Shown here piece after piece: positions 22,361-62,733 of a stretch of 62,733 nt of DNA. This DNA is from Candidatus Doudnabacteria bacterium. Its GTDB lineage: Bacteria > Patescibacteriota > Doudnabacteria > UBA920. Positions within the stretch are counted from its first letter, which is position 1. Every line of letters begins with the position of its first letter. Position numbers and translations under genes: made by a program. The stretch covers positions 182,930 through 245,662 of the forward strand of contig PLYC01000021.1 of the NCBI GenBank assembly GCA_003151625.1, in the 5' to 3' direction. The notes below the pieces were generated by a model. That model searched no databases and had not been told where the DNA came from. It worked only from the letters and a program-made list of their open reading frames with translations.

Positions 22361-23735
22361 TTTTTGTTTTTATTTCCGTTCCGATTAATGCTAATAAAAT
22401 CCAAAGAAGAAGTTGGGTTTGCTGGAGGGTGTAAAAGTAGTGGTCAAATTGCATTAGGAGCAAAAAAGACAGGAAAATAGAGAATAGAGACAAGAGATAA
22501 GGAGAGAAATTAGTCCGCAATTTTTTTGTTAGTCCCCAAAGATGGGATAAAAATATCCAGATTAAAACCAGCATTGCCGGGATGCCAAGTTCAGCGGCGG
22601 CGATAATAAAGTAGTTGTGCGGGGGTTGTTTGTCCCAGGGTGCTAATGATTTTCCACTGTACTGTTCCATGTGGAGCAACCCCTCCCCTAGCCCGACGCC
22701 AAATATAGGGTTTTTTTCTGCCATTTTGATTCCAGTTACATCATAAAATTTCCTGGCAATGGTTGATTGGTCGGAAAAGGTTGCGCGGGTGAGAAGGAAG
22801 GGTTTGAAGATGAAAAAAGATATGGCTATTGAAACAACTATTACCACTATTGGCGTCATTCTAAACCCGAATGCATTTGAGGGTAAAGAATCTTTGGTAT
22901 GAGATCCTTCACTCGGCTGCCCTCGTTCAGGATGACGCCGAATAAATAAACCTCCGAAGTAAATAATAAGCCCTGTGGCTAACGCAAGATATGCCTCACG
23001 TGAAAAGGTAACAGTAAGACCAAGAATGTTAATAAATAGCAGGGTTGAGTATAAAATGCGTGATTTATTGGTTATGGCATTCGTTAACAGGTAAATGGTA
23101 ATTGTAATTCCAGCTGCCAAGAAGGCTGAAAATGGATTTGGGTGTGGAAATAAGCCGTAACCGCGTATAAAAGTTGTTCCACCTGAAACAATTTTAGCTA
23201 CGCCCAGGATGCTTGGACTAAGATGTGACTCCCCTAACTTGAACAAACCGATTGACGATTGCCTGGCAAATTGGATTAGCGCAAGTATGGACTCAAGGCT
23301 GCATAACCAGACAAAAAGCTTCAAAAACAGCTTTTTTATGAGGTTTTGCTCAAAAAGAAGGCTAAATGTTCCATATGCAACAATTAGTTCGAGCCATTTT
23401 ATGAGCAAATAGCCATTAAGCCTTATATTTAAGCCAAAATGTGCAAGAAAAGCACAAAAAACCAATAGAATAAGCCATTTTAGGGGTTTTACCACGTGGC
23501 AGAAGTCTCTACCACGTGGTAAAATGACCAAAAACCACATAGTGAGAAGTAATATGTCGCTTAAATATAAGGAAAAAGAAGTAAAATCAGAATAATCTCC
23601 TGTTAAATAAGCTTCTTTTGAGAAAAAAGTGTGGTGAATAGGGCAAAATAGGGATAAGAGAAACAAAAAGGCAAAGATTCTCAGTCTTTTGTTATAAGTT
23701 TGACTATTTTTAAGATTTGTGATGTAATTAATCAT
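22338..23735 (-). CDS. O-antigen ligase-like (Wzy_C) membrane protein with a 28-aa palindrome-derived insertion
   Basis: Many TM helices, R..G.F.HPN, LTVTFSR, P.FGVG.G, PPHN...ELG; start reassigned to the ATG at 23735. Confidence 0.8.
   Translation of the reverse strand: MINYITNLKNSQTYNKRLRIFAFLFLLSLFCPIHHTFFSKEAYLTGDYSDFTSFSLYLSDILLLTMWFLVILPRGRDFCHVVKPLKWLILLVFCAFLAHFGLNIRLNGYLLIKWLELIVAYGTFSLLFEQNLIKKLFLKLFVWLCSLESILALIQFARQSSIGLFKLGESHLSPSILGVAKIVSGGTTFIRGYGLFPHPNPFSAFLAAGITITIYLLTNAITNKSRILYSTLLFINILGLTVTFSREAYLALATGLIIYFGGLFIRRHPERGQPSEGSHTKDSLPSNAFGFRMTPIVVIVVSIAISFFIFKPFLLTRATFSDQSTIARKFYDVTGIKMAEKNPIFGVGLGEGLLHMEQYSGKSLAPWDKQPPHNYFIIAAAELGIPAMLVLIWIFLSHLWGLTKKLRTNFSPYLLSLFSIFLSFLLLMQFDHYFYTLQQTQLLLWILLALIGTEIKTKNEPATKI
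22854..22937. repeat. 84-nt GTCAT...ATGAC composite palindrome (family B), in frame in the O-antigen ligase
   Basis: Coding strand CGTCATCCTGAACGAGGGCAGCCGAGTGAAGGATCT...AGATTCTT...GCATTCGGGTTTAGAATGACG; homologous to 29820-29913. Confidence 0.8.
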
Positions 23736-53677: not shown

Positions 53678-54367
53678 ATGATTTCCAAAGTTTTTTCTGC
53701 AGCGGTAATCGGCCTTGATGCTGAACTTATAGAAGTAGAAGCGGATGTCACCAATGGCCTTCCCGCGACAATTGTTGTGGGCTTGCCCGACACCGCTGTT
53801 CAGGAAAGCCGCGAGCGGGTTAAAACCGCGATAAAAAATTCCGGATGCAGTTATCCGCAAACAAGAGTCAGTGTGAATTTGGCTCCGGCGGACGTGCCTA
53901 AACTGGGCACGCATTTTGATTTGCCTATAGCTTTGGCTATAGTTATGGCTTCCGATCAGGTGGAATTGGATATGGCTGGCAAAATGTTCTTGGGGGAGCT
54001 GTCTTTAGATGGACAGTTGCGGCCGGTGTCGGGTATTTTGGCCGCGGCATTAAAGGCAAAAAATTTGGGCATTAAGGAAATTTTTGTGCCAAAACAAAAT
54101 GCCAAGGAAGCGGCTTTGGTTGACGGAATAAAAGTTTATCCTTTAAATGATTTAAAGCAACTACTAGGGCATTTAATGGGGTTGAGTCCGCTGGTTCGGC
54201 AGAAAACAGTAGTTGCCTCAGAAATTTTAAAAAATTTTCAACCTTCTTTGGACATGAAAGACGTGGCTGGCCAGGAATTGGCCAAGCGCGCTTTGGAAAT
54301 CGCGGCGGCCGGGAGTCACAACATTCTGGCATTGTGGTCCCAATCCAGCACGCCGCATCGGGCCTGA
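53678..54367 (+). pseudogene. comM: 5' part of the ComM/YifB Mg-chelatase-family ATPase, interrupted at ~54328
   Basis: V.VEAD...GLP...VGLPD.AVQESRERV, NLAPADVPK.G..FDLPIA, GELSLDG, D..DV.GQ..AKRALEIAAAGSHNIL, then homology stops before the Walker A. Confidence 0.9.
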
Positions 54368-54394
54368 TCCATTTGCCGACGAGCGTGGCGGGTG

Positions 54395-54569
54395 TATACC
54401 AGCAGAAACAGATCCGGGACCCCTGACTTCACCCCTCCTTTTGGAGCTTAACGGCCGTTTCCCATTGTCGATGACCACCATTGGGAATCGCATGAAGCAA
54501 GCGCAACTGTGGGAATTGAGGCAGCATCAGCGCGGCCCAAGCCACAACGGCCTTTTGTTCCTCGTGTTC
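54395..54569 (-). pseudogene. Phage VRR-NUC nuclease remnant (upstream in-frame stop plus a frameshift)
   Basis: Hand translation: EHEEQKAVVAWAALMLPQFPQLRLLHAIPNGGHRQWETAVKLQKEG, shift, VKSGVPDLFLLV. Confidence 0.7.
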
Positions 54570-54756
54570 TCAGCGAGCCAAGGCTCGCGGTTTTAGGGTC
54601 GGCGCCGCTGAAAAGCGCACGGCAACAGTTTGCTTGAAGAGCAAGAACAAAACTGCGGTAAAATGAACAACTTGGCCGCTATATCGATTCTGCCCAGCTC
54701 CGGCCGGGATCTTTGCTGGGATTGCGTGACGCATGACGATTTTCTCAGACCTTTGA

Positions 54757-55935
54757 ATGACAATGGCAAGCAGCCCAACCTTTCCGACCATTGAGGCGTC
54801 TGCACACCGCCCTGCGCTTCTGACGTGCAACTGGTCTGGAAGCGCGCTGAAGATTGAAACTACGCTCCATCAGCTCTCGCCGTATATTGGCAAACTGAAG
54901 TCGTCTATCGCCGGTTCCCTCATCTCGCAGTTCACGCAGGTAGGCGATGTCGTATACGATCCGTTCTCGGGTTCCGGGACGGTGGCGCTAGAGGCATGGG
55001 CAGCGGGGCGCAATGTTCTCGCCAATGATCTCAGTCCGTATGCGGCATTGCTGACGCGTGCCAAGCTCTTTCCGTACCGATCCCTCGAAGACGCGCTCAA
55101 TGACATCGAACGTCTATCAGGAGAAGCCGACCAAGAACAGGGCGACATTGATCTCAGGAGCGTCCCGGCTTGGGTGCGGCAGTTCTTCCACACAGAAACG
55201 CTAAGGGAAACGCTTGCATGGACGCGCGTTCTCAAACGACGCCGGCGCTGGTTCATGCTAGCTGCCCTCTTGGGAATTCTGCATCACCAGCGCCCTGGAT
55301 TCTTGTCATTTCCAAGCAGCCACACAGTACCATACCTCCGCGTCAAAGCGTTTCCTCGCGCGAAGTTTCCTGATCTCTACGAATACCGCTCCCTACGGGA
55401 TCGCCTGGAAGCCAAAGTCAAACGGGCCTTCCGCCGGGTGCCCGAGCTGGACTTCAATCTCGACCGGCGGTGCTTCTTGAAATCGGCGCATCTACTCACA
55501 CCGGAAGCGACGGTTGACGCCATTGTCACTAGCCCACCCTACATGAGGCAGCTTGACTACGCGCGAGACAATCGCCTCAGACTCTGGTTTCTCGGGATAG
55601 ATGACCACCGTTCGCTCGACAGGAAGATCTCTCCGCGCGAAGACGCCTTTTTAAAGCTGATGCGTCAATGCTTCATCAAATGGAAGACGATTCTTAGACC
55701 GCAAAAGTACTGCGTTCTCGTGATCGGTGATGCCAGCAGGCAGGTTGAAGACGGCAACTTGCCAGAGATAATCTCCCGGATCGCGACTCATGAAGTCGGC
55801 GGCTATTCTCACGTTCACGATTACACCGAAACGATTCCAAACGAACGCCGCGTCCGTCGCGGCCTCACGGGAAGCACTTCGGAAACCATCGTCATACTGC
55901 GCAACAACGCTTCGCGCGCAAAATCGACCGCCTAG
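54757..55935 (+). CDS. Amino-methyltransferase (N4-cytosine/N6-adenine DNA MTase, motif I before motif IV)
   Basis: PYIGK, VYDPFSGSGT SAM motif, NDLSP, IVTSPPY catalytic motif. Confidence 0.85.
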   Translation: MTMASSPTFPTIEASAHRPALLTCNWSGSALKIETTLHQLSPYIGKLKSSIAGSLISQFTQVGDVVYDPFSGSGTVALEAWAAGRNVLANDLSPYAALLTRAKLFPYRSLEDALNDIERLSGEADQEQGDIDLRSVPAWVRQFFHTETLRETLAWTRVLKRRRRWFMLAALLGILHHQRPGFLSFPSSHTVPYLRVKAFPRAKFPDLYEYRSLRDRLEAKVKRAFRRVPELDFNLDRRCFLKSAHLLTPEATVDAIVTSPPYMRQLDYARDNRLRLWFLGIDDHRSLDRKISPREDAFLKLMRQCFIKWKTILRPQKYCVLVIGDASRQVEDGNLPEIISRIATHEVGGYSHVHDYTETIPNERRVRRGLTGSTSETIVILRNNASRAKSTA

Positions 55936-55957
55936 CCAGAGAGAAACGGGAGGGCAT

Positions 55958-57043
55958 ATGCAGCAACTCTTCAACACGAGGAACTACAGCATCCGCGACT
56001 TTGAGGAATGGAACCAGCGAAATGAGCTCGTTCTCCAGCCGAAATTTCAGCGTCGCGACGTTTGGAGCGATAAGGCGCGCTCCTATCTGATGGACACGAT
56101 CATTCGTGGCAAGCCAATCCCCAAAATATACATGCGGCAAGATGTCAACCCCGAGACCCGTCGGACTCGGCGGGAGATTGTTGACGGGCAACAGCGGTTG
56201 CATACAGTCCTCAATTTCATCAAGGACGGCTTCAAAATCAGCAAGGCCCACCACGAGACGCTTGGCGGCAAGTCCTTTAGCGGACTGGACACGGCCACGC
56301 AGCGTGATATTTTGAAATATGAGTTCGTCGTCGATCTCTTGCAGGACATGCCAGACAACGAGGTCTACGATCTCTTTGCCCGGATTAATACCTATTCGGA
56401 GAAGCTCAAGCCCCAAGAGTTGCGCAACGCGAAGTGGTTTGGAGATTTCAAATCCTCCGTTTACCTGCTTTCCAAGGAGTTCTCGACTTTCTTCGTCGAG
56501 AACAAAATCTTCACGCCGAAGCTCATCCTTCGGATGGCAGAAGCCGAGTACATCTCTGAGCTGCTCTTGGCTATGCAAGAGGGAATCCGTCAAGGAGATA
56601 GGCGCACCCTCGATAATTGTTATAAAACATACGACGACGACTTCCCCTCGCGGAAGACTCACGAGAAGAGATTCAGAGAGACAATCGACACGATCAAGGG
56701 AATCTTCGGCGATGATTTGCCTCAATCAGAATTTTCAGCAATCCGTCTTCTCTACCCGCTATTCTGCGCGATTTACCACCTCAAATACGGTCTTCCTAGA
56801 CTGAGGTCCACGAGAAAAGTCTTTCGGGCCACCGACAATCCGAGGCTCAAATCCGCATTGGAAACTCTGGACGATCTGATCACGAGAATCAAGGAAGCCG
56901 AAGCAGATCACGAGGAAATATCGCTCTCCTCCGACGACCGCAAATTCTACGATGCATACAGTGTGCACTGGGTTCACGCTGACAAGCGGACAACATTGAC
57001 CGAGCATATCTGCAAGAAGCTCACCAAGGCCCTGGACGAGTGA
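55958..57043 (+). CDS. DUF262 (GmrS/ParB-Srx-like NTPase) protein
   Basis: LQPKFQRRDVW, G.PIP, EIVDGQQRL, LFARIN...L.PQELRNA; GGAGGG Shine-Dalgarno before the ATG at 55958. Confidence 0.88.
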   Translation: MQQLFNTRNYSIRDFEEWNQRNELVLQPKFQRRDVWSDKARSYLMDTIIRGKPIPKIYMRQDVNPETRRTRREIVDGQQRLHTVLNFIKDGFKISKAHHETLGGKSFSGLDTATQRDILKYEFVVDLLQDMPDNEVYDLFARINTYSEKLKPQELRNAKWFGDFKSSVYLLSKEFSTFFVENKIFTPKLILRMAEAEYISELLLAMQEGIRQGDRRTLDNCYKTYDDDFPSRKTHEKRFRETIDTIKGIFGDDLPQSEFSAIRLLYPLFCAIYHLKYGLPRLRSTRKVFRATDNPRLKSALETLDDLITRIKEAEADHEEISLSSDDRKFYDAYSVHWVHADKRTTLTEHICKKLTKALDE

Positions 57044-57053
57044 TGGGTGAACC

Positions 57054-57689
57054 GTGGCGCGCCGGCTTATAACGGTCATAACGGAGTTTTCGCGATGCGT
57101 GCAGGACGCCAGAACTCTTGCGGCCGATGCATACGATTGGTCCCTAGCGTCGGCGGGTACACGTCCCCGGATTTCCGCGAAGCGATGCGATTCGATTACC
57201 GAATTGGCATTCTTCCGGGTTTTCAGCGGCTGGGAAGCATTCTTGGAAGAAACGTTCATTCTCTATTTGCTTGGCCAGCAGGCGCCACGCGGTCGTAAGA
57301 CCCAAAGATATGGATTCCCGCCCGGCGAAAGGGCCGCGTATGAGTGGGTCGCAGAGGGTCGCGATTATGCCAAGTGGACCGCTACCGAGGTTCGCAAGAG
57401 AGCCGAGCGTTTATTCCGTGACGGAAAGCCATTCAGCCCCGTCATCAGCAGTCACCATAATCTTTTGTTTCAGGTTAAGACAATCAGAAACGCAATCGCA
57501 CATGACTCGCTGGATGCGCGCCAGAAATTCGAGGAGCTGGTACGCAATGAGCTGCAGGCTCTTCCTCCAAATACTACCATCGGCAGCTTTCTCCTCAAGA
57601 TCAAGCCCAGATCCAATCCCCCTGTTTCATTCTTAGAGTTCTATCTCGACAAGATTGAAATCGCCGCCCGAAAGATTGTCCCTATTTGA
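57054..57689 (+). CDS. HEPN-domain putative RNase
   Basis: N-terminal W-E-x-F-L-E helix and the R-N-A-I-A-H (Rx4H) motif. Confidence 0.78.
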   Translation: MARRLITVITEFSRCVQDARTLAADAYDWSLASAGTRPRISAKRCDSITELAFFRVFSGWEAFLEETFILYLLGQQAPRGRKTQRYGFPPGERAAYEWVAEGRDYAKWTATEVRKRAERLFRDGKPFSPVISSHHNLLFQVKTIRNAIAHDSLDARQKFEELVRNELQALPPNTTIGSFLLKIKPRSNPPVSFLEFYLDKIEIAARKIVPI

Positions 57690-57700
57690 AGAGCCTCCAT

Positions 57701-57742
57701 ATGCGCGTCAGCGAGGCCCTGCATCTGCGAGTCTCTTCGTAG
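57701..57742 (+). pseudogene. Possible tyrosine-recombinase box I fragment
   Basis: MRVSEALHLRV resembles the G(L/M)RxSExxxL motif; only 13 codons. Confidence 0.3.
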
Positions 57743-58015
57743 CTGGCCCAGTTCAATATACCCCATGGGAGCGCCCCGGGCAGACGCGGGCGGGGTGTGC
57801 CGCCGCAGCGACCTCGACGAACCGGATGTGGCGCCGATCAGCCCGCAGTAGAGCTTGACCGGCCACTTCTACGAAAGCTTTCACGAGGAGTTGGGGCCGA
57901 CTGGACCGACCGTCTCGGCGGCCTGGAGCGCCCTTCGGTGAAGCCGAGACGTTGAACTTGAGATCTCGGAACGAGGTATGATTGAAAACTGAGAACTTTT
58001 CGCCGGCTTTCTGCC

Positions 58016-58279
58016 ATGCTTGTTGGTCCGATGGCCCGACTCTGTGAAAGAGGCTTGGCCAGGGATGGGCGATGTGTGCTGGTAGTCGGGGAGTCAGTCA
58101 GTCGGAGCCAAACCGTGCATCCAGCGCAACACCCTATCGCGATCTTTGAGGCTCACGCGCCATCTTTGGTCCTTGAGAACATGATTGTTGATTCGGTCCC
58201 CGACGTTCGAAGGGCGCACCGTGACTACCGAGGCGTGAAGACGGAGCAAATAATTGTGTTCCGAAATGCTCAAGATTGA
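58016..58279 (+). pseudogene. C-terminal remnant of a second methyltransferase paralog
   Basis: CVLVVGE...DSVPDVRRAHRDYRGVKTEQIIVFRN aligns with CVLVIGD...ETIPNERRVRRGLTGSTSETIVILRN of 54757; ATGA overlap with the kinase gene. Confidence 0.65.
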
Positions 58280-60978
58280 TGAAACGACGCCGCAATTCCA
58301 CGCAATCCGATTTCACTTGGCTCGCGAGCCTGGAGGGCCAGCAGGTCGGCGACTATGAACTCGACAACTACATCGGCAGCGGAAAGATCGGTTACGTTTA
58401 TCGAGCTCATCGTCGTGACATTCCCGACATCGAACATGCTGTCAAGTTAATACCTAATCTTAAGAAAGGATGGGAAACGGAACTAAAGAAAGTTGCGAAG
58501 TTATCGAAGGTTTCTAACGTTGTTCATTTCCATCATCTCGGCAAAGCCACTGTGTCATTTGGAGAGCACTCTGCCTCTGTTCAATACACTGTTTGGGACT
58601 ATATTCATCCCGGACGCAATCTGAATTCGATCTTGAATAAGCCGACCTTCCTTCCGGTAAGCTTCGTGGTTGCAATTGTGGAAACAGTTCTTCGAGTTCT
58701 ACATGCATGCCAGAGCCAAGGCATCCCCCGCCACGGGGACCTCCACCCAGGTAACATCCTCATAGGTGAGAAAGACGAATCTCAGCTTGATTCAAGTCTT
58801 CGGCCTGTTGAGCCGGTTTACGTATCCGATTTCGGATACGGTGCGACCTGCGGCGGACCGAAACCCAAAGACGACTATCATGGCCTCGCGTCGATCACCG
58901 ATGCGTTGACAAAAAAGATAGACTGGGCGACAGCCAATGGCAGCGACAAGCAGCTTTTGGAAGGGACGGTCTCCGTGCTCCGGAAGGTACTGTCGGAAGA
59001 TACCCAGAGCGAGCGAACGGTTCCCAAGGACATCCTTGAAGCCCTGTTGAGGGTCCGAAGTCAGGCAGGCCGGGTCAGGGAAGGCTCCCAACAGCCGCAG
59101 CCGCCGATCGGGCCGCAGGAACCCCGAAGATTCTCAGTCGGCTCCTATCAAGTCAGCGAGATGTTGGGTGATGACTGGGGGCTCTGGCAGTCGCTATTTG
59201 TCCCAACGGTTCCCGCCAGATCTCGAATTCTTGAACGTGACATTACCTCCGTAGTCACTGGACCACGGGGTTGTGGGAAGACAATGCTCTTCCGGCGGCT
59301 GAGTGAGCGGCTAATTGTCGAGTGCGGGCCAATTGACGACACCCCGACCTCCTTTGTTGGGATCTACGTCAACGCCAATGATATTTCAGATGCCTTTTCG
59401 GTCTTTTCGGACGCGCCGGATGAAAGCGCAATCGCCGATCTCTTTTGCTATACCCACCTCTGCATTTTGTCCGATTTTCTCGCGGTGGAGGCGGCACAGG
59501 CGCGGCTCGGGGGGGTACAGTCCTCGCCGGAGCTCATCCAACTCCTGACGGACTGGTTAGGCAGGCCCATGCATACCGCACCGGTCATTGCTGAGGAGAA
59601 CCAACTGGAACGGCATCGTGCCGTGCTGGAGCAAATCAAGAATTCCTTCATCACTCGGGCTGGAATCGATGGCTTCCCTGGTCGATCAGATTTCGGGCAT
59701 CATGCGTGGCTCAAGCGCTTGGTCCCGTTGATGCGGGGAGCTTGCCCATGGATGGAACAGAGAATAGTCTTCTTTTTCGTTGATGACTATACAACGCCCC
59801 GTCTTTCACTAAGCATGCAACGCGCGCTCAATCGAGTCTTATTCCAGCGTTCCCATGAGTTCGTTTTCAAGATTGCGACAGAAGCGGCCACCACTTTCTT
59901 GTCCGAGGACCTCACAGGCAAGGCGTTGCAGGACGGCGACGACTACAGGCTTGTTGATTTGGGTGAAGAAGCACTGTTCATGACTGACGCCGAGCGCGGC
60001 GCATTTCTCAGGGAGGTATTTGCGAAGCGCCTTGCTTCCGATCAACGAATCGCAATGGAGGGCCGGACCCTGGCCGGACTTCTCGGCTCGTTGGGCAAAT
60101 CGAAAACTGCGTTTGCGCGGCTGTTGCGTTCCGAAGAGCGGGAACCGCCTGAAGCAACCAAGGCCGGATCACTTCGGGGAGCAACGAAAAGAAGGGCACT
60201 CTACCACGGTCAGGATGTCTTTTGCTGTCTATGGTCTGGTGACACCCGAATCATGATTCAGCTGATGCAGGACGTTGTAGATGCCGGCACGAACGCTGAC
60301 AAGGGCGTTCTGACGAAACGGGTCGGCGAAGAAGATCAAGATCGAGCTTTCAGAAATCGAGGTAGCCAATGGCTGGACATGCAGACGCGCAACCAACCAA
60401 GCGACCCAAAGCTCGTGAAATCACTGCTTCAGATCCCCGATGCTTTGAAGGGCGTCCGCCAACTGGCTGGCGGCTCGTACGGAAGCCACCTGAAGGCCGT
60501 TGTGGAGGCTTTTAAGGATGCCGCCCGCCTGGAGCTATTGGGACCAGTCTACATAATGAAGGAAAACGGTCGGGCGCGTGAAGTTCCAAAGATGGCTTTC
60601 AGAATTGAAATAACAGATGAGTTCAGGCTCGACACCCTGGCGACGGAAATCTATCGCGACTTGATTCGATACGGGCTGTTCATGCGCGATGCACGTGGAA
60701 AGAGTGTACGCGGCGCGATGGTCCCCCGCTTATACCTCCGTCGTCTGCTTTTGCCATACTGCGTGCTCGCACTGTCAAAACGAGACAGCGTCGCGATGTC
60801 CTGCGAGTGGTTCCGTAGCCTCTTGTTGCATCCCGACAGATTCATGGAGTCCTGGCAGAAGCACCGGCAGCCCGAGCTCGCCGTCAGCCGCGACCAGACA
60901 CGCTTGGACTTCGATGGCGCTGAGCAACGCGCCCTCGACCTTGATCCGAAGTACGACGACCTGGGAGATGAGGATTGA
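58276..60978 (+). CDS. Ser/Thr-type protein kinase fused to an ORC/CDC6-like P-loop ATPase
   Basis: IGSGKIGYVY, AVK, HGDLHPGNIL, SDFG; GPRGCGKT Walker A, FFFVDDY Walker B; C-terminal helical/wHTH-like region (LIRYGLF...PRLYLRRLLLPY). Confidence 0.8.
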   Translation: MMKRRRNSTQSDFTWLASLEGQQVGDYELDNYIGSGKIGYVYRAHRRDIPDIEHAVKLIPNLKKGWETELKKVAKLSKVSNVVHFHHLGKATVSFGEHSASVQYTVWDYIHPGRNLNSILNKPTFLPVSFVVAIVETVLRVLHACQSQGIPRHGDLHPGNILIGEKDESQLDSSLRPVEPVYVSDFGYGATCGGPKPKDDYHGLASITDALTKKIDWATANGSDKQLLEGTVSVLRKVLSEDTQSERTVPKDILEALLRVRSQAGRVREGSQQPQPPIGPQEPRRFSVGSYQVSEMLGDDWGLWQSLFVPTVPARSRILERDITSVVTGPRGCGKTMLFRRLSERLIVECGPIDDTPTSFVGIYVNANDISDAFSVFSDAPDESAIADLFCYTHLCILSDFLAVEAAQARLGGVQSSPELIQLLTDWLGRPMHTAPVIAEENQLERHRAVLEQIKNSFITRAGIDGFPGRSDFGHHAWLKRLVPLMRGACPWMEQRIVFFFVDDYTTPRLSLSMQRALNRVLFQRSHEFVFKIATEAATTFLSEDLTGKALQDGDDYRLVDLGEEALFMTDAERGAFLREVFAKRLASDQRIAMEGRTLAGLLGSLGKSKTAFARLLRSEEREPPEATKAGSLRGATKRRALYHGQDVFCCLWSGDTRIMIQLMQDVVDAGTNADKGVLTKRVGEEDQDRAFRNRGSQWLDMQTRNQPSDPKLVKSLLQIPDALKGVRQLAGGSYGSHLKAVVEAFKDAARLELLGPVYIMKENGRAREVPKMAFRIEITDEFRLDTLATEIYRDLIRYGLFMRDARGKSVRGAMVPRLYLRRLLLPYCVLALSKRDSVAMSCEWFRSLLLHPDRFMESWQKHRQPELAVSRDQTRLDFDGAEQRALDLDPKYDDLGDED

Positions 60979-62099
60979 CGCTCTTGGACAACATTATGTT
61001 GAACATCCGAACGGAAGACGGAATTGACCTCCCGCGAGTCCTTGCCTGCCCCGAAAGATTGGATGTGGATCACACCGCGATTATCGCGGCCGCGGGGTTC
61101 GAAGACCGAACATTGGCGCTCGCGCCTATGCTTAGTCAGGCAGATTGTGCGCTTGGTCTAGTTGTCTACAAAGATTGGGGGAAGGAAAACCGGGTAGAAG
61201 CCCTACTTAAATCATATGCTACGACGGGCATTGGGCCATTAGCCAGGAAGTCTCTAGACTATGACCGATACGACCCCGACAGTCTCGGAAACGCCCTGAG
61301 AGATTGGTTGAAGGAGGTCGGTCACCCGCGGGTTCTTTTGGATATCTCAACGATGTCGCGGCTTGCCATTATGGTGGTTCTCGACGTCTGCCGTGAGCTG
61401 GAAAAGTGTGTCACCGTCTTCTATGCCGAGGCCGAGGAATACGGCCCTTCGGAAGCGGAGTATGTACGGGCGAAGGCTGGAGTTTACCCCCGGCCGAGTA
61501 TCCAGGTTTATAGCGGCGTCGGCGGCGTTGTCCGCTCGCGGCGTCTGTCCAGCGTTGCGCTTCAGGGAGAGCCGACGGCTTTGATAGCATTTATGTCGAT
61601 GAATGAAGGGTTGACTCAGGCGCTGATCAACTGCATCTCTCCAAGTCGTCTATTTTTGGTCAACGGACAACCTCCTCTCCACTCGTGGCGGGAGCGTGCG
61701 ACGGCTTGGATTCACGAAGAGTTGCGACTTGAATGGCCCGAGCGAGATAATCCTTGCCTAATGACAGAGGACGGAATTGCTTTACCCGAGCGAGCAACGT
61801 CCACGCTTGACTATACGGAGACTGTCAACGTGCTGCTCCATCTCTACTGGAGTAATGCTGCCGAGTACCGGGTCGTTCTGGCTCCGACTGGTAGTAAGAT
61901 GCAGACGGTGGGGTGTTACGTGGCAAAGGGAGTCCACACCGACATTCACGTTGAGTACCCGACTCCGGAGAGCTTCTTGCCCACCTACAGCAAGGGCATT
62001 GGAAAGCGCTGGATGGTTGATTTCGGCTTGCTCGATTCGCTGCTGCGCGGCTTGCGATCTAGGATCATGACGGATCGCTTGATGGTGCTTCGTGCGTGA
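60975..62099 (+). CDS. Conserved hypothetical with two CARF-like Rossmann halves
   Basis: 4-nt overlap with the kinase stop; AGFEDRT, VLLDISTMSR, VFYAEAEEY, VVLAPTGSKMQT, VEYP...YSKGIG. Confidence 0.6.
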   Translation: MTLLDNIMLNIRTEDGIDLPRVLACPERLDVDHTAIIAAAGFEDRTLALAPMLSQADCALGLVVYKDWGKENRVEALLKSYATTGIGPLARKSLDYDRYDPDSLGNALRDWLKEVGHPRVLLDISTMSRLAIMVVLDVCRELEKCVTVFYAEAEEYGPSEAEYVRAKAGVYPRPSIQVYSGVGGVVRSRRLSSVALQGEPTALIAFMSMNEGLTQALINCISPSRLFLVNGQPPLHSWRERATAWIHEELRLEWPERDNPCLMTEDGIALPERATSTLDYTETVNVLLHLYWSNAAEYRVVLAPTGSKMQTVGCYVAKGVHTDIHVEYPTPESFLPTYSKGIGKRWMVDFGLLDSLLRGLRSRIMTDRLMVLRA

Positions 62100-62295
62100 A
62101 GTGTGACAGCCGAGCGACTTGGGCCAGTGGGGTGTGGCGCTATATTGGAGAAGTCGCCCTAAAGGTCGAGGGGCGTTCAGGAACATCAGCCCTCTGAAGT
62201 CGCGGTCACGTTAATTGTGAGTATTTGATGAACACCAGTAATTCGCTCGTCGCTATCCAGGACGCGTAAAAGAAATAAGTCAAGCGATTGGCGAT

Positions 62296-62422
62296 TGCCC
62301 ATCGATGCGGCAGGAGCTCGTCAGGCCTGGCAATTAGTATAGTCGGCGATCCGTCCCAGCGCGGCGCGGAACCAGGCGAAGGGATCGATCTTGACGAGTT
62401 CGCGGGAGGTGACCAAGCTGCG
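62296..62422 (-). mobile_element. IS66-family transposase C-terminal remnant (frameshifted)
   Basis: RSLVTSRELVKIDPFAWFRAALGRIADY, shift, RPDELLPHRWA, matching the IS66 C-terminal DPxxWL.D.L.RI...I.ELLP..W pattern. Confidence 0.7.
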
Positions 62423-62698
62423 GAGCTGTGCGTAGACAGAAGCGCATTACAGCATGAAATCAACGGTTTACCGGAGCCTATAAGAGTTCACCAGCTAAGA
62501 CGGCGATGAGTCGCCCGTGGAGCGAGTCGCAGCGGTCACGATGGAGGAGGCCATTGCCTGCGAAGGCGGTACGCCGATTTTGAAATCGTCCGGGTTGAGT
62601 ATATGGGGGTTGGTCCGTTTGCTTTCTGCATCCTCGGCCGACTGAGCGGCGCCGTTCGGTTGCCCGGCTCGGTAGGCTTTGGATCAGCGCAGGCGGAC

Positions 62699-62733
62699 CT
62701 CTGACATTCCGCCACTGTGGCGGAATGTCAGAG
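62699..62733. repeat. Perfect 17-bp-arm hairpin ending at the last base of the window
   Basis: CTCTGACATTCCGCCAC-T-GTGGCGGAATGTCAGAG. Confidence 0.8.

Follow-up and report, generated by a model that had tools for sequence, protein, structure and literature searches.

A probable serine recombinase island, most likely of recent Acidobacteriota origin, in comM of a Candidatus Doudnabacteria genome

Large serine recombinases (LSRs) act by an established mechanism of cutting, rotation and religation, on which the integration steps proposed below are based. In Bacillus subtilis, the LSR elements SPbeta (SprA) and skin (SpoIVCA) interrupt the host genes spsM and sigK, respectively; excision, which is developmentally regulated in both cases, rebuilds the gene precisely. 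A 2-bp core within a palindromic attP is a hallmark of LSRs (PMC3556126, PMC10083194), and Mg chelatases and competence proteins were reported as overrepresented among LSR targets in a computational survey (Durrant et al. 2022, PMC10083194, Supplementary Note 1). Moreover, comM is a hotspot for defence-carrying elements in Acinetobacter baumannii, the AbaR/AbGRI islands (Tn6022-type, Tn7-like), and elements that insert in comM have been argued to be shielded from removal by transformation (PMC11472951). LSR targeting of Mg-chelatase and competence genes is already published, and the notable part of the locus described here is its probable cross-phylum origin. Gene flow into lineages of the candidate phyla radiation (CPR) and the host associations of those lineages are poorly known, and a literature search for comM with a serine recombinase, or for mobile elements of CPR bacteria (Patescibacteria, Doudnabacteria), found no paper on this case.

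Two comM halves at two junctions

The window, a stretch of 62,733 nucleotides, corresponds to positions 182930 to 245662 of contig C5 in a 1.5-Mb Candidatus Doudnabacteria genome of 34 contigs (G000), and its end is the end of that contig. Pfam domain matches indicated that ComM homology ends at position 54327, after the residues ...AAAGSHNIL, where LSGPPGSGKT follows HNIL directly in the ComM of relatives. Instead, the open reading frame continues for 13 unrelated codons (ALWSQSSTPHRA) and then stops (Table 1). The part of comM that is present was 88% identical to the intact 504-aa ComM of a congener (G018). GC content was 0.418 up to position 54327 and 0.553 thereafter, and the step was sharp, with 300-bp bins of 0.427 at 54000 and 0.587 at 54300. 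Windows of 8.4 kb across the genome had a mean GC of 0.430 with a standard deviation of 0.024, and 0.08% of them reached 0.55. Contig C5 has one more stretch of comparable GC, up to 0.60, at C5:85000-94000.

Table 1. Positions of features at and beyond the comM break, numbered from the first nucleotide of the window
Feature	Position	Strand	Details
comM 5' fragment	53678..54327	+	Codons 1-216 plus CT (first two bases of Leu217); ORF continues through island DNA to a stop at 54367; Pfam ChlI 4e-45, Mg_chelatase positions 1-27
attL	54306..54358	+	B arm 54306-54325; crossover CT 54326-54327; P' spacer GGCATTG 54328-54334; P' arm TGGTCCCAAT 54335-54344; conserved P' flank to 54358
Left 8.4 kb of inserted island	54328..62733	.	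GC 0.553; island extends past window end
N6/N4 DNA methyltransferase	54757..55935	+	Pfam N6_N4_Mtase; PADLOC MTase_II
DUF262/GmrSD_N-type protein (PADLOC NsnA-like)	55955..57043	+	Pfam GmrSD_N 1.2e-22; PADLOC NsnA 2e-38
211-aa ORF	57054..57689	+	No match in Pfam or PADLOC
Stump of second methyltransferase gene (last ~82 codons)	58016..58279	+	Directly upstream of kinase gene; 68% identity to C-terminus of the methylase preceding the kinase gene in Acidobacteriaceae locus L040
Ser/Thr kinase fused to ORC/Cdc6-like AAA ATPase	58276..60978	+	Pfam Pkinase, ORC-CDC6-like; PADLOC CARF6--CARF_STK_AAA
CARF-like partner protein (HFX_2341-like)	60975..62099	+	PADLOC CARF6--CARF_CARF_CARF 3.9e-12
Perfect 18+18-nt palindrome	62698..62733	.	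Cut by window end; overlaps LSR stop codon; kept in Bryobacteraceae locus L034
LSR gene, stop and last codon	62728..62733	-	Stop 62728-62730; other 273 known codons lie beyond the window in k141_694420, which ends inside the gene

A preliminary description of this sequence had placed the loss of comM just before the Walker A motif, at an abrupt switch to high-GC DNA, and had found both the 3' half of comM and an intact integrase to be missing from the window, all of which was borne out. It had also claimed that palindromes disappear in the high-GC part, but perfect hairpins with a stem of at least 9 nt occurred there at 0.24 per kb, a figure that represents only 2 hairpins, against 0.37 per kb in host DNA, which is no real difference. 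A further remark, that genes led by Shine-Dalgarno (SD) sequences dominate the high-GC part, was likewise weakly supported: SD-like words were twice as dense in the island, but that density is confounded by GC and a clear SD preceded some island genes only.

The preliminary description had proposed to look for the comM 3' half elsewhere in the assembly. A search of the whole genome located it at positions 22715-23569 (minus strand) of contig C18, with matches to Mg_chelatase positions 22-206 and to Mg_chelatase_C, and no second copy of comM was found in the genome. On C18 the reading frame picks up again at LLSGPPGSGKT, the right junction (attR) lies at C18:23556/23557, and the DNA beyond the gene has a GC of 0.549 up to the contig end. 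Thus, the genome contains two junctions, at each of which one comM half abuts high-GC DNA. When the two comM flanks were joined at the dinucleotide CT, an uninterrupted ComM of 501 aa resulted, reading ...AAAGSHNILLSGPPGSGKT... across the join. The island ends of C5 and C18 overlapped neither each other nor any other contig of the metagenome-assembled genome (MAG). At least 23 kb of island was seen, and its full size is probably greater than 34 kb.

Attachment sites in comM and in related genomes

The attachment sites were resolved by comparison with intact relatives and with a congener, G012, that carries an insert of its own. The left junction reads CACAACATT-CT-GGCATTG-TGGTCCCAAT and the right junction, on the comM strand, reads ATTGCGACCA-CGACGCC-CT-TCTTTCCGG. 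Exchange of partners at CT gives an attB of CACAACATT-CT-TCTTTCCGG, which is CAC AAC ATT CTT CTT TCC GG in frame and encodes HNILLSG, and the reconstructed empty join contains ...CACAACATTCTTCTTTCCGG... Intact congeners read CAT AAT ATT TTG CTT TCC GGT (HNILLSG) across the same position. The same exchange gives an attP of ATTGCGACCA-CGACGCC-CT-GGCATTG-TGGTCCCAAT, an inverted repeat centred on CT with arms 7 nt from CT on both sides, and the reconstructed circular join contains ...CGACGCCCTGGCATTG... attB and attP have different bases on both sides of CT, which places the crossover within the 2-bp CT itself, the sole sequence that attL and attR have in common. Neither local alignment nor inspection detected a direct repeat longer than 2 bp at the two junctions. 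As judged from sequence, an attB and attP that share only a central CT are the signature of an LSR.

Occupation of the same site was found elsewhere in the order. The N-terminal half of comM was present in 135 of the 146 genomes, in all but a handful of which the gene is uninterrupted (about 500-540 aa), and an insert after residue 217 was found in three only: G000, G012 and a member of another family, G041. In G012 (DAIMCS010000001.1), an insert of 3.1 kb occupies the same CT inside a single 496-kb contig, carries the arms ATTGCGACCA and TGGTCTCAAT, and encodes a GajA/OLD-like ATPase and a C-terminal LSR remnant. The P' arm of attL recurs in G012 and also in intact attP sites beside near-identical LSR genes. 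In G041, an 11.7-kb insert of low GC (0.33-0.44) lies at the same CT and encodes an intact 577-aa LSR (Resolvase, Recombinase and Zn ribbon domains); its arms have diverged (ATTAGGAACA and TATTCCTAAT), but the 7+2+7 geometry is kept. In the G041 island, a tyrosine recombinase and the LSR lie at opposite ends (locus L052, 1346-2254 and 11233-12966; contig C13 of G041), and a methylase and a probable restriction gene are also present. A short comM frame in G063, a genome of the same family as G000, was considered as a fourth insert and rejected, as it contains a 2-nt deletion within the GPPGSGKT codons and no insert (G063 contig C18, about 22440-22480; L053); the deletion marks either a pseudogene or an assembly error. 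We conclude that insertion at this comM site is common and that the only unusual part of the present case is the apparent jump between distant phyla.

Joins of this type could also arise if, during assembly or binning, a Doudnabacteria contig were misjoined at comM to the DNA of a high-GC organism, and such a chimera was one of two readings offered by the preliminary description. The high-GC DNA does lie at the ends of two MAG contigs, and the interior of the island is missing. However, an exact-protein look-up identified the source assembly (ENA ERZ27254241), which contains a primary contig, k141_694420, that is 100% identical to the window and 821 bp longer, and another, k141_1255778, that is 100% identical to C18 and at least 7.8 kb longer. 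Both junctions are internal to these primary contigs, which measure 246,769 and 48,439 bp and are 100% identical to the MAG contigs. Host and foreign DNA have only 2 bp in common at each join, far too few for a de Bruijn join at k=141, and two independent misjoins would not both fall on the exact midpoint of a single attP, each taking one of its halves, and on the same comM codon. Moreover, the same site is occupied inside single long contigs of two other genomes (G012 and G041). The 229-aa product that spans the junction is on record on three long contigs, which may not be independent of one another. We consider a chimera very improbable and the junction very probably real.

The primary contigs reach farther into the island than the MAG contigs do, by 821 bp for C5 and by about 18.5 kb for C18, and all of the extra sequence is foreign high-GC DNA. 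Some form of curation, or trimming of suspected contamination, appears to have removed this part of the island from the MAG. The odd contig ends are very probably biology and not contamination, and automated trimming of "foreign" DNA would erase such evidence.

Recombinase, cargo and probable source

A search for a recombinase elsewhere in the assembly had been proposed as well, and the source contig contains, just past the end of the window, a 274-codon fragment of an LSR gene (locus L054, 11754-12578, minus strand). Only the C-terminal 274 aa were assembled, with a match to Zn_ribbon_recom, and the catalytic N-terminal half would lie past the contig end. The fragment was 91.6% identical in protein and 92.3% in DNA to residues 286-559 of an open frame in locus L034 (JBEKYD010000059.1), which holds a 554-aa LSR with all three domains (Resolvase, Recombinase and Zn ribbon); the Bryobacteraceae label of this closest named relative comes from MAG binning of a 29.6-kb contig. 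DNA identity rose to 97.8% and 98.2% against two metagenome contigs, and protein identity was 53% to an LSR of Terriglobia on a 309-kb contig. All of the close LSR relatives have an unrecombined attP, the P side of which resembles the attR side of the present island almost base for base over about 60 nt.

No LSR of the comM-island family was found elsewhere in the MAG, where the six or seven other LSR genes are at most 26% identical. Further LSR genes in G000 lie at C5:12083-13770, C5:40411-41715, C1:86695-87483, C3:93384-94502, C9:22866-23630, C21:22865-24262 and C26:3421-3870, which suggests that many other LSR elements are present in this genome. Across the 146 genomes of the order, no member of the comM-island LSR family was found beyond the remnant in G012 and the distant LSR of G041.

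The LSR gene lies 8.3 kb from attL, with cargo between, whereas 0.1-2 kb separates the LSR gene from attP in relatives. The stop codon is overlapped by a 37-bp palindrome (L054 11724-11760; L034 961-997) that is cut by the end of the window. Nucleotide similarity to Bryobacteraceae locus L034 stops 14 nt past the P' arm and resumes exactly at this palindrome. The palindrome also marks the start of the cargo, which varies in length (0.1, 2 or 8.3 kb), and might act as a terminator or as a further site for protein binding.

The attP geometry (arm-N7-CT-N7-arm) was found in G012, in G041 and in the intact sites of 14 genome loci and about 10 metagenome loci. The 14 genome loci were returned when the pattern ATTGCGACCA-N16-TGGTCNCAAT was searched in about 185,000 species genomes, and 11 of them are in Acidobacteriota (Bryobacterales, Terriglobia, Granulicella, Solibacteraceae). 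Their consensus is GCCGGATTGCGACCACAATGnC-CT-ATCATnGTGGTCGCAATCCGGC, with CT at the centre in most. In five loci that have a near-complete LSR copy, the end of the LSR gene lies 16-240 bp from attP, and four more have partial LSR matches. The attP pattern had no match in viral contigs. A pattern of the attR type (P arm, CT and comM Walker A) matched G012 only among about 185,000 genomes, with none in Acidobacteriota or otherwise outside Patescibacteria; a candidate hybrid P-CT-comM site, L063, was rejected as a degenerate attP without comM behind it.

Six Acidobacteriota genomes that have both the LSR and attP carry comM without an insert, and the gene is whole in five. The comM match of G150, likewise free of an insert, covers model positions 1-162 only and contains a TGA. 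A similar attB-like site with a CT core, CATAACGTG-CT-CATGATCGG, is present in the comM of the Bryobacteraceae MAG. The element may exist mostly as an episome in the phylum presumed to be its home. Two DNA methylases and a type IV coupling protein adjoin the LSR in relatives, and because of this the LSR element family is probably conjugative or mobilisable.

Several LSR-adjacent att regions on Acidobacteriota-type contigs contain two full attP-like sites side by side (L035 4587-4676; L064 7644-7707; L079 2001-2081; L060 4196-4250; L065 7593-7700; L069 3817-7040). Most of the difference within a pair lies at the central dinucleotide, read as AC and AG in L035, for instance, and such pairs could direct one integrase to targets with different cores. 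In the Bryobacteraceae relative (L034 700-916), attP is embedded in an imperfect inverted repeat whose arms measure about 100 nt each, and the attR flank of the present island keeps the corresponding arm (75% identity over 109 nt). LSRs usually need about 50 bp, and the L034 repeat is much longer.

Cargo genes occupy the space between attL and the LSR gene (Table 1). In loci L040-L047, a cassette of a kinase/ORC-ATPase and a CARF-like protein normally opens with a methylase of its own; here only a stump of that methylase precedes the kinase gene, and a different cassette, of a methylase and a DUF262 protein, lies ahead of it. The kinase/ORC protein and its CARF-like partner are 76% and 72% identical, respectively, to proteins encoded in synteny in L040, a locus on a 3.06-Mb Acidobacteriaceae contig, and six of the eight loci related to the cassette belong to Acidobacteriota. 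The right arm of the island encodes a TIR protein and a HAD hydrolase, together with a PGK-like protein, for which an exact look-up returned no record, and a kinase longer than 2,190 aa. With its methylase and DUF262 protein, kinase/ORC-ATPase and CARF-like pair, TIR protein and giant kinase, the cargo appears to be of the defence type.

A different class of element might also have entered comM, either a Tn7-like (AbaR-type) transposon or a tyrosine-integrase island. The gene is a classic target of Tn7-like AbaR islands in Acinetobacter (PMC11472951), and the unseen interior of the island could hold other mobility genes. A Tn7-like origin is opposed by a 2-bp core in place of a 5-bp target duplication and by the lack of tnsABC/tniQ genes in the 23 kb of island seen, that is, within 8.4 kb and 14 kb of the two ends. 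A tyrosine-integrase island is opposed by the lack of PF00589 genes among the island ORFs seen and by junctions that repeat no more than 2 bp. Moreover, the two island ends each correspond to one half of a palindrome associated with LSRs, and the island has an LSR gene; either of these other mechanisms is therefore scarcely credible.

Near-identical LSR copies beside an unrecombined attP were found on high-GC contigs from soil and peat, one of them binned as Bryobacteraceae. Because the island combines a GC of 0.55 with kinship to Acidobacteriota in its LSR and attP and in its cargo, Acidobacteriota are the group to which sequence comparison points as the source. The near-identity of the LSR with copies on high-GC, Acidobacteriota-type contigs would imply a recent cross-phylum move into the CPR genome. 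The converse reading is that the island is real but native to Patescibacteria, that it is GC-rich there, and that its Acidobacteriota relatives are mis-binned or received it by transfer in the opposite direction. LSR elements native to Patescibacteria do occupy this comM site, the low-GC element of G041 with its intact LSR being one; the named LSR relative nearest in sequence comes from a short contig assigned by binning; and no insert was found in comM of the Acidobacteriota genomes examined. Against this reading, the GC of 0.55 exceeds both that of the host (0.43) and that of the G041 island; more distant LSR relatives with the same attP lie on Acidobacteriota contigs of 184-381 kb; and relatives of the cargo lie on Acidobacteriota contigs of 0.35-7 Mb. 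In addition, the 146 genomes of the order hold the LSR family only as the G012 remnant and the distant G041 LSR. We regard a native origin as unlikely; the direction and route of transfer are inferred.

The other reading in the preliminary description, an attL whose island came from a distant high-GC donor, is supported by the two junctions, the attB and attP pair, the intact empty site of relatives and an LSR and cargo closest to Acidobacteriota. We conclude that window positions 54326-54327 are very probably the attL crossover point of an integrative island that was put into comM of Candidatus Doudnabacteria (Patescibacteria/CPR) by an LSR and for which a recent Acidobacteriota origin is most likely. 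More tentatively, the island could have arrived from a Bryobacteraceae-like member of the Acidobacteriota, by conjugation or by uptake of DNA from a cell on which the Doudnabacterium lives, with the near-universal Walker A stretch of comM serving as a cross-phylum landing pad for this LSR family. If so, comM islands could be used to link uncultured CPR lineages with the bacteria that are their hosts or neighbours.

Proposed integration and comparison with known elements

In the proposed mechanism, LSR dimers would bind the palindromic attP of the element and also attB in comM, CAC AAC ATT CT|T CTT TCC GGT (HNIL|LSG), two codons before the Walker A motif GPPGSGKT. Staggered cuts at the common CT, followed by rotation and religation, would then produce attL on C5 and attR on C18. 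Integration is attributed to an LSR because attP and attB share only the CT core, attP is palindromic and an LSR gene is present. The enzyme was presumably the LSR of the island itself, although another recombinase could have carried out the reaction, given that the LSR gene is farther from attL here than it is from attP in relatives.

Insertion splits ComM between a Lon/ChlI-like N-domain and the AAA+ ATPase, which would leave the host without a functional ComM helicase. Helicase-assisted integration of heterologous transforming DNA should then be impaired, and, by analogy with other elements in comM, impaired transformation would protect the island from transformation-mediated removal. The locus offers a testable case, resolved to the base, of a mobile element that has probably crossed from a high-GC soil phylum into a CPR bacterium, and the reconstructed attP and attB pair, together with a near-identical full-length LSR, is directly usable in a recombination assay.

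The island shares with SPbeta and skin the interruption of a host gene by an LSR element, and developmental regulation is a feature of those two. It resembles the surveyed LSR elements in its LSR gene, its 2-bp core, its insertion in the coding sequence of a Mg-chelatase-family (ComM) protein and the expected disruption of a competence function, but differs from them in its CPR host, in an LSR and cargo closest to Acidobacteriota (LSR DNA up to 98%) and in the 8.3 kb of defence cargo between attP' and the LSR gene (PMC10083194). Like the AbaR/AbGRI islands, it targets comM, breaks the Mg-chelatase domain, carries the defence cargo that is often found in those islands and is expected to lower transformation; those islands, however, move by transposition with a 5-bp duplication and tni/tns genes, in contrast to conservative serine recombination at a 2-bp core (PMC11472951). 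In Listeria phages A118 and phi10403S, a serine integrase likewise splits a competence gene, comK, at a short core, and attP and attB are little alike beyond that core (PMC3556126). Those elements are prophages of a Firmicute and comK encodes a regulator, whereas the element described here is an island with defence cargo, its target is the ComM helicase, and its relatives carry a type IV coupling protein.
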